In this document: one piece after another, positions 14,698-16,010 of the stretch | Numbering within the stretch: position 1 is the stretch's first letter | How the letters are laid out: the number at the start of each line of letters is the position of its first letter | Origin: a virus | Lineage: Duplodnaviria; Heunggongvirae; Uroviricota; Caudoviricetes | IMG/VR virus record: IMGVR_UViG_2561511241_000003 | Reading direction: 5' to 3' (one strand) | Length of the DNA: 37,150 nucleotides | The notes under the pieces: model-generated | The model's database searches: none | Told to the model about the DNA's origin: nothing | The model's input: the letters and a program-made list of their open reading frames with translations, nothing else | Program-made: the position numbers and the translations under genes

Positions 14698-16010
14698 TGA
14701 ACCGCCCCGGGTTTCCTGGAGAGTGTTTTATCTGTGAACTCAGGCTGCCAGATCATTGTTTCCGATGGAAGCATAATAAGCTTTTTCTGCTTCTGCCGGA
14801 GGAGTATGGCCCAGCCTTCCCAGCAATCGTCGATTGTTATACCAGTCCACCCACGTTAGTGTGGCCAGTTCCACTTCTGCACGGTTTTTCCAGCTCTTAC
14901 GGTGTATTACCTCCGCTTTGTAAAGACCATTGATGCTCTCAGCCATCGCGTTGTCATACGAGTCGCCTGTACTCCCTGTTGATGCCAGTAATCCGGCTTC
15001 TTTTAGTCGCTCCGTATAGGCCAGTGACACATACTGAGAGCCTTTATCGCTGTGATGGATGGTGCCAGACGGACGACGGGCCCACAACGCCTGCTCCAGC
15101 GCATCCAGCACGAATGTCGTTTCCATAGACGATGAGACCCGCCACCCCACGATGTATCCGGCAAACACATCAATGATAAACGCCACATAGACGAAGCCCT
15201 GCCATGTGCTGACGTAAGTAAAATCAGCCACCCACAGCTGGTCAGGTCGTTCTGCCACGAACTGACGGTTTACGCGGTCGCCTGCGGCAACGGCTTTCCG
15301 GCTGATGGTCGTACGGACCTTTTTACCCCGGAGAACACCGGCAAGTCCCATAACCGCCATGAGACGTGCCACTGTACATCTGGCCACCCTGATTCCTTCC
15401 CGTAACAACTGACGCCAGACTTTACGCACACCGTACACCTGATGATTTTCATCGTATACGCGCTGTATCTCTCTCTTCAGCCAGTCGTCGTGCTGCGCAC
15501 GGGCACTGCGTTTATCCGGATGATGTCGCTGTTGCTGACAATGGTAATACGTTGACGGGGCAATATGCAGTTCGCTGCATACCGGTCCGACCCCGTACTG
15601 CTCACGCAGCTTATCCAGCAGTGGCATCATTTTTTTCCAGAGGCGGTCGAACTCCGCCTTCGCAAAATAAGCGGAAGCCTGGCGAAGGATATCGTTACTG
15701 CGGCGCAGTTCACGATTTTCACGTTCCAGCTCTTTCAGACGCTGACGTTCAGCGCTGGTGAGCCCACCATCACCGCCCCCGGTATCCCGCTCATGCTGGC
15801 GAACCCAGACACGCAGAGTCTCCGGCGTACAGCCAATCTTTGGGGCAATGGAACAAATTGCCGCCCACTGTGAGTCATATTCATCCTGACTTTCCAGAAC
15901 CATACGAATCGCCCGCTGACGGACTTCGGGGGAAAAACGAGTATTTTTAGTCATCCTGTTTACCTCTTTCTCAGGGAGTTTAGTCTTCCAGGATTTTCCG
16001 GGGCGGTTCA
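14698..16010 (-). mobile_element. IS3-family insertion sequence, IS629/IS1203/IS3411-like (~1.31 kb)
   Basis: Terminal inverted repeats start TGAACCGCCCCGG at both ends. The transposase N-terminus [15 protein letters not shown] matches the IS629 group as I recall it. Flanked by a 3-bp direct repeat GTA. Confidence 0.9.
14740..15954 (-). CDS. IS3-family transposase, OrfA and OrfB fused in a single frame (404 aa)
   Basis: One ORF spans the OrfA HTH/leucine-zipper region and the OrfB DDE domain. The join reads TGG AAA AAA ATG ATG CCA (7 A), so no frameshift is needed. Confidence 0.88.

Follow-up and report, generated by a model that had tools for sequence, protein, structure and literature searches.

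The question raised by this locus is whether an IS3-family insertion sequence in which orfA and orfB are joined into one reading frame by a run of seven A is a genuine fused-transposase allele, or whether its single long ORF reflects an erroneous base in the deposited sequence. The window, meaning the whole stretch of 37,150 nt that was analysed, is an exact substring match to CP002729.1 1003525-1040674 (the reverse complement of CP002729.1 1015264-1022478 lies within it), and CP002729.1 belongs to the porcine ETEC E. coli strain UMNK88 (PMC4358887).

An IS1203/IS629-type element in a P2-like prophage

In the window, a P2-like prophage has its gpS-like 'virion morphogenesis' gene interrupted by the insertion sequence. 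The features of the element and of its insertion site are the following.

14698..16010, minus strand: IS1203/IS629-type insertion sequence of the IS3 family, 1313 bp as deposited (reference, 1310 bp)
14698-14710 and 15998-16010: perfect terminal inverted repeats of 13 bp, TGAACCGCCCCGG
16011..16013: left copy of the target-site duplication, TAC on the minus strand, from the 3-bp flank overlap at the ETEC4085 empty site
14695..14697: right copy of the target-site duplication, TAC on the minus strand
16008..16484, minus strand: 5' part of the P2-type gpS-like gene, from the rl0044 and ETEC1749 annotation of the same insertion
14524..14688: 3' remnant of the gpS-like gene to the left of the element, a 54-aa ORF, from the same two annotations
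14740..15954, minus strand: 404-aa fused orfA-orfB ORF with HTH_Tnp_1, HTH_21 and rve domains
15630..15636, minus strand: run of seven A (T7 on the plus strand) whose additional A brings the two frames together; reference and sister copies have A6

The TGAACCGCCCCGG arms of the UMNK88 element follow the 5'-TG...CA-3' end rule of the IS3 family. The 3-bp target-site duplication, together with the empty site of E. coli ETEC4085, is likewise that of the family: in ETEC4085 the gpS-like gene runs unbroken over 636 nt, and the two flanks there have exactly 3 bp in common. In the window, PF05069 (Phage_tail_S) was detected on either side of the element. A search of the phage collection for a prophage bearing the insertion matched the flanks alone (67% coverage), with no phage record containing the insertion.

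The fused ORF scored 366 bits against the NCBIfam model NF033516 for IS3 transposases (transpos_IS3; cut-off 160), and its Pfam domains (PF01527, PF13276 and PF00665) give the N-terminal HTH and C-terminal DDE (rve) arrangement of the family. At the nucleotide level, the element is 99.8% identical over 1313 bp to E. coli copies that PGAP names IS1203, which under the ISfinder identity threshold is enough for the same IS. Matches in E. coli number in the thousands, being labelled by PGAP as 'IS3-like element IS1203 family transposase', 'programmed frameshift' and 'AL1L pseudoknot', and the best of them are all 1310 bp long. No 100% match was found among the RefSeq complete E. coli genomes, a collection that apparently does not include UMNK88. 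The assignment to an IS3-family element of the IS629/IS1203/IS3411 type, made in the earlier note from the letters alone, is therefore borne out by nucleotide identity, by domains and by a full-length match to the ALIL frameshift signal, and the similarity to IS1203/IS629/IS3411 extends to the same inverted repeats and the 3-bp duplication. The UMNK88 copy differs from these elements in its length (1313 versus 1310 bp) and in three single-A insertions, one of which merges orfA with orfB.

Two overlapping ORFs (orfA in frame 0, orfB in frame -1) expressed with programmed -1 frameshifting are present in the sister and reference copies, whereas the deposited UMNK88 copy has the one 404-aa ORF. 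The absence of the two-ORF layout hangs on a single base, which is probably an error. On the minus strand, the junction reads CTC TGG AAA AAA ATG ATG CCA at 15642..15622, the seven A being 15636..15630. The in-frame joining of OrfA and OrfB by seven A, and the one continuous 404-aa ORF that results, had both been pointed out before, and both are present in the deposited record; the interval given at that time, 15625-15645, covers the run but is about 3 nt off. It had also been predicted that with one A fewer OrfA would end at TGA and OrfB would lie in the -1 frame, and the reference copies read just so, with WKK-TGA at the end of orfA and orfB beginning MMPLL... In the Rfam ALIL alignment, the extra A is an insertion relative to the family consensus. 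Runs of this length are not unusual in the window, which has 14 of length 7 (the one discussed here among them) and two of length 8, and the A7 run is notable for its position alone, namely the orfA/orfB overlap of an IS3-family element.

The frameshift signal and the predicted product of the extra base

The consequences of a seventh A depend on where ribosomes shift frame, and the relevant elements were located as follows.

15556..15673, minus strand: ALIL frameshift-stimulating pseudoknot, a full-length match to Rfam RF01497 (115.8 bits, gathering score 50, E=5e-31)
15658..15642, minus strand: SLI hairpin, GGCGG-AGUUCGA-CCGCC, 5' of the A-run in the Rfam alignment
3' part of the ALIL match, starting about 35 nt beyond the A-run, minus strand: SLII, from the Rfam alignment
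15664..15667, minus strand: U_UUU tetramer (T + TTT = F97), at which the RefSeq product places the slip, 5 nt upstream of SLI

In the Rfam ALIL alignment, the apical loop of SLI is complementary to the internal loop of SLII. Frameshift stimulators of this kind act 3' of the shift site (PMC5009743), and the shift site is therefore expected upstream of SLI. Both candidate trans-frame proteins were built from the A6 element of UMNF18 and then looked up by exact sequence. A -1 slip at U_UUU after F97 yields exactly WP_396128927.1, the accession on the 'programmed frameshift' CDS of the UMNF18 element, and the O157 counterpart of this product is a 'MULTISPECIES IS3-like element IS1203 family transposase' recorded in 394 contigs. 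The protein with its junction at the A-run is the UMNK88 ORF itself, WP_077633960.1, and is recorded in 2 contigs only, UMNK88 and a draft contig with A5. Taken together, the position of the junction in RefSeq, the ALIL layout in Rfam and the review literature place the curated slip site at U_UUU and not at the A-run. Of the earlier statement that IS3-family elements normally undergo programmed -1 frameshifting at an A-rich site, the programmed frameshifting is upheld for this element by annotation of its sister copies, whereas the placement at the A-run is not, given that SLI lies 5' of the run and that the RefSeq junction is at U_UUU. The shift site of IS3411 was reportedly mapped experimentally by Mazauric et al. 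in 2008.

With the curated slip at U_UUU, 5' of the first ALIL hairpin, the A7 fusion would encode a chimera rather than the native OrfAB. The idea that seven A would produce a constitutive OrfAB has accordingly to be given up in favour of an OrfA-OrfB chimera retaining the full OrfA C-terminus. The A7 ORF and the annotated OrfAB differ by about 10 residues at positions 98-108, and a -1 slip on the A7 run itself would lead to WKKNDATAG*. In the laboratory, a constitutive transposase is by standard practice obtained by inserting one A at the slip site, as in IS6110-FS (PMC5896891). The UMNK88 frame is similar to such laboratory frame-fused transposases (IS1203v/IS629 OrfAB, IS6110-FS and IS911 OrfAB) in that one added base creates one long ORF for which no -1 frameshift is needed; however, those constructs encode the native trans-frame protein, whereas in UMNK88 the curated slip site is some 30 nt upstream of the extra base, and residues 98-108 would be OrfA-type.

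Sister insertions and other copies of the element

E. coli rl0044 (Switzerland) and ETEC1749 (Belgium), two independently sequenced complete genomes, carry the same prophage with the element at the identical site. In both of them the element is 1310 bp long, has A6, and is annotated by PGAP with a joined 1214-nt 'programmed frameshift' CDS, so that A7 is not reproduced in independent assemblies of the same insertion. Neither is the extra A the sole length difference from the reference. Compared with the consensus IS1203 (UMNF18), the UMNK88 element shows no substitution and three single-A insertions, the other two of which are in the left inverted repeat.

15994..15997, minus strand: private 1-bp insertion, A4 for A3, IS position 16
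15986..15987, minus strand: private 1-bp insertion, GGAAGA for GGAGA, IS position 22

Owing to these two extra A, the inner part of the left inverted repeat is out of register. Neither insertion was found at any of 22,905 matching places, which came from 5,694 E. coli complete-genome records; the best full-length identity was 97.1%, the value for a copy lacking both. The rl0044 and ETEC1749 elements have five substitutions relative to the consensus IS1203 (window positions 15178, 15200, 15364, 15367 and 15487), at all of which UMNK88 has the consensus bases. This may reflect either IS-to-IS gene conversion or a repeat-collapsed consensus of all copies. The UMNK88 copy thus has a history partly separate from that of its sister copies, and could in principle have imported a real A7.

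Outside the element, the window from 11038 to its end, about 25 kb, differs from rl0044 by three substitutions and no indels, and window 1-9246 differs from ETEC4085 by one substitution and no indels. Altogether, five one-base insertions and one substitution (at 23240) are private to UMNK88 in the 37-kb window, insertions thus exceeding substitutions. Four of the five insertions fall in runs of 1-3 bases, and the remaining long runs (13 of length 7 and two of length 8) are unchanged.

The two private insertions outside the element are single G at approximately 11008 and 11013, 5 bp apart, in the tail-fibre (gpH-like) gene at 10971-12101 on the minus strand. They shorten the gene product to 376 aa, compared with 499 aa for the ETEC4085 orthologue; these two extra G are probably also sequence error, and if they were real the prophage would be without a complete fibre. 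Both lie inside an invertible tail-fibre segment bounded by the inverted repeat 9229-9246 / 11039-11056.

Several other properties of this prophage were observed. The 18-nt crossover-type inverted repeat ACGTTGGTTTGGGAGAAG, present at 9229-9246 and 11039-11056, delimits the Gin/Cin-type invertible tail-fibre segment, and an invertase gene is located nearby at about 8580-9200 (by homology to the ETEC4085 locus 9568-10167). The window is without some 465 bp that are present in ETEC4085 (locus 10248-10711), where they are flanked by a 23-bp direct repeat containing the crossover site, which suggests that one alternative fibre cassette was lost by recombination between directly oriented crossover sites. 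The tail sheath/tube/tape-measure module (window 1-9710), to the left of the invertible segment and oriented opposite to the baseplate genes, is unrelated or 67-74% identical to rl0044 and ETEC1749 but 99.99% identical to ETEC4085. The P2-like prophage of UMNK88 and ETEC4085 is therefore a hybrid or rearranged one, which probably originated from two P2-like prophages recombining at invertase sites. In the lysis region, a run in the DUF2570/LysC genes at 17081-17086 is G6 in the window and in rl0044, with the genes intact, but G5 in ETEC4085 and ETEC1749, whose annotation marks the gene as incomplete; at this run a mutation or an error seems to lie with the Belgian assemblies.

The length of the A-run was also surveyed in public genomes, using a 70-nt query centred on the run, which matched 22,131 places in 5,617 E. 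coli records; matches over 69 nt correspond to A6. The exact A7 70-mer was present in 8 of these 5,617 records and in 6 of 2,952 plasmid records, whereas A6 was seen in more than 99% of the approximately 22,000 E. coli copies and 6,000 plasmid places. The check proposed in the earlier note, a comparison with reference elements, gave A6 in the IS629 copies of pO157 Sakai and pCP301 and in the IS1203 of UMNF18; seven A are not the norm.

Ten other A7 copies from the databases were compared. Four of them (PNUSAE008406, SCU-306, 32-4 and PNUSAE019785) have further homopolymer indels within the element and look like errors. A deletion changing A5 to A4 at IS position 684 is repeated in all four of these unrelated assemblies, and gives the impression of a homopolymer miscalled systematically in some of the assemblies. 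The other six copies (the clone D type, ECO_1_S, EC052, PNUSAE014970, 2014C-3050 and CM138030) are clean. The clone D-type element, an iso-IS 94% identical to IS1203, has A7 followed by TAA and an uninterrupted 1215-nt transposase CDS. The exact 70-mer of this element is shared by 11 ExPEC-type genomes that different laboratories sequenced independently; the locus, adjoining an AlpA-type regulator, is the same in the three genomes inspected (clone D i14, AH25 and W150), and genomes with this allele have 1-3 related copies each. The clone D type is thus a 'fused' allele that has truly become fixed without proliferating. Real A7 alleles do occur in nature, and the A-run is genuinely polymorphic (A5, A6 and A7). 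The UMNK88 copy is similar to the natural A7 alleles of clone D (WP_001555244.1 / WP_077250290.1) and ECO_1_S (WP_085959878.1) in having A7 in the same run, a 1215-nt CDS and a retained ALIL. However, those elements are 1311 bp long with A7 as their sole length change, whereas the UMNK88 copy has two more private indels and A6 sisters.

A5 copies of IS629/IS1203 were observed at one conserved locus in several genomes (e.g. CP048107.1 106859-108671). NCBI assigns to these copies the 404-aa product with its junction at the A-run (158 contigs for the O157-type protein). They should make no OrfAB, as the -1 frame entered from U_UUU meets TGA. More generally, the A5, A6 and A7 alleles are labelled inconsistently in RefSeq, as 'programmed frameshift', as 'frameshifted' pseudogene or as plain CDS.

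Weighing error against a real allele

We infer, with a probability of roughly 0.83, that A7 and the other private insertions are indel errors in repeated DNA. On this comparative evidence, the UMNK88 element would be an ordinary IS1203/IS629 copy, and the real genome would most likely have A6 with two overlapping ORFs. The seventh A would be one base inserted wrongly during sequencing, assembly or consensus calling. Five errors of this kind would be present in the 37-kb window, three of them in the multicopy element and two in the invertible tail-fibre segment. It is in repeated or rearranging DNA, where all five insertions fall, that consensus calling is weakest. UMNK88 was presumably sequenced by 454 pyrosequencing, which was not used as evidence. 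Real divergence is dominated by substitutions, and five insertions against one substitution are far from that pattern. With only one of the five insertions outside runs of 1-3 bases and longer runs unchanged, the pattern is also unlike in vivo slippage, and slippage of the mismatch-repair type as the source of all five was rejected for this reason, the longer runs outside the element being unchanged. In having several run-lengthening indels and no substitutions, the UMNK88 copy resembles those database A7 copies that look erroneous, unlike the clean alleles. Against an error it may be argued that 9 kb at the left end of the window and 26 kb of DNA to the right of the element are free of private indels, so that the assembly is not uniformly error-prone. 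A generally error-ridden assembly is not supported on these grounds; errors confined to repeated and invertible DNA fit better. The earlier note had left the choice between a variant and a homopolymer error, and of its two options the error is favoured by the A6 sisters and the private insertions, the constitutive-transposase alternative being less supported.

That alternative, in which A7 is genuine, having arisen by +1 slippage or come in by gene conversion, and a 404-aa OrfA(1-108)-OrfB chimera is made constitutively, is unlikely, although several observations speak for it. Clean A7 alleles exist elsewhere and at least one is stably inherited, indicating that the run does mutate in vivo; the unique DNA around the element is without indels; and the frame consequences of A7 are confirmed by translation. 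In addition, excision in O157 reaches about 1e-3 when a fused OrfAB of IS1203v/IS629 is supplied, whereas the native arrangement gives 2.6e-6 and OrfA alone lowers it to 3.8e-9 (10.1101/2023.06.07.543989). However, the identical insertion has A6 in the sister genomes, and a real A7 has a low prior, at about 0.1% of copies. In UMNK88 it is moreover accompanied by two private +A within the same 1.3 kb, seen in none of about 22,900 other copies, and by two private +G elsewhere. The chimera departs from the curated OrfAB at about 10 residues (98-108), its activity being only putative, and the insertions in the inverted repeat, if they were real too, would put the inner repeat block out of register and probably disable the copy in cis. 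That the fused form is instead the normal reference form, in a family member without frameshifting, is barely conceivable. A few A7 copies are indeed single uninterrupted CDSs in RefSeq (WP_085959878.1, WP_001555244.1 and WP_077250290.1), but A6 prevails in more than 99% of E. coli and plasmid copies, the reference IS629 of pO157 Sakai and pCP301 included, the full-length ALIL stimulator is conserved, and PGAP annotates programmed frameshifting on the sister copies. As a normal form, seven A are refuted by the record counts in E. coli (8 of 5,617) and in plasmids (6 of 2,952).

If A7 were real after all, ribosomes still shifting -1 at U_UUU/ALIL would terminate at 114 aa, and OrfA and OrfAB would be made in the reverse of their normal ratio. 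Judging by the fused IS629/IS1203v OrfAB, an increase in trans of transposase-dependent excision or transposition could follow. A fuller version of this scenario, which must be regarded as quite improbable, would have a constitutive chimera with the C-terminal zipper heptad of OrfA, while U_UUU/ALIL diverts some ribosomes to a 114-aa OrfA-like product. With its altered left end, the copy would then be disabled in cis and serve as a source of trans-acting transposase with an inverted ratio of regulator to enzyme, and the A5/A6/A7 run, lying 3' of the true slip site, would act as a mutational on/off/hyper switch for IS629-type elements.

Returning to the reading as a sequence error, the fusion of orfA and orfB recorded here is in all likelihood no genuine feature, and the insertion sequence, its frameshift signal, the laboratory fused alleles and the natural A7 alleles are all already known or in databases. 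The fusion would therefore carry little biological weight, and serves mainly as a caution: in older or unpolished assemblies, gene fusions can seem to arise or vanish through single-base indels in multicopy insertion sequences. Two by-products concern the family more broadly: the A-run at the orfA stop is not the curated slip site in IS1203/IS629, and the run is polymorphic in public genomes, where its treatment by RefSeq is inconsistent.
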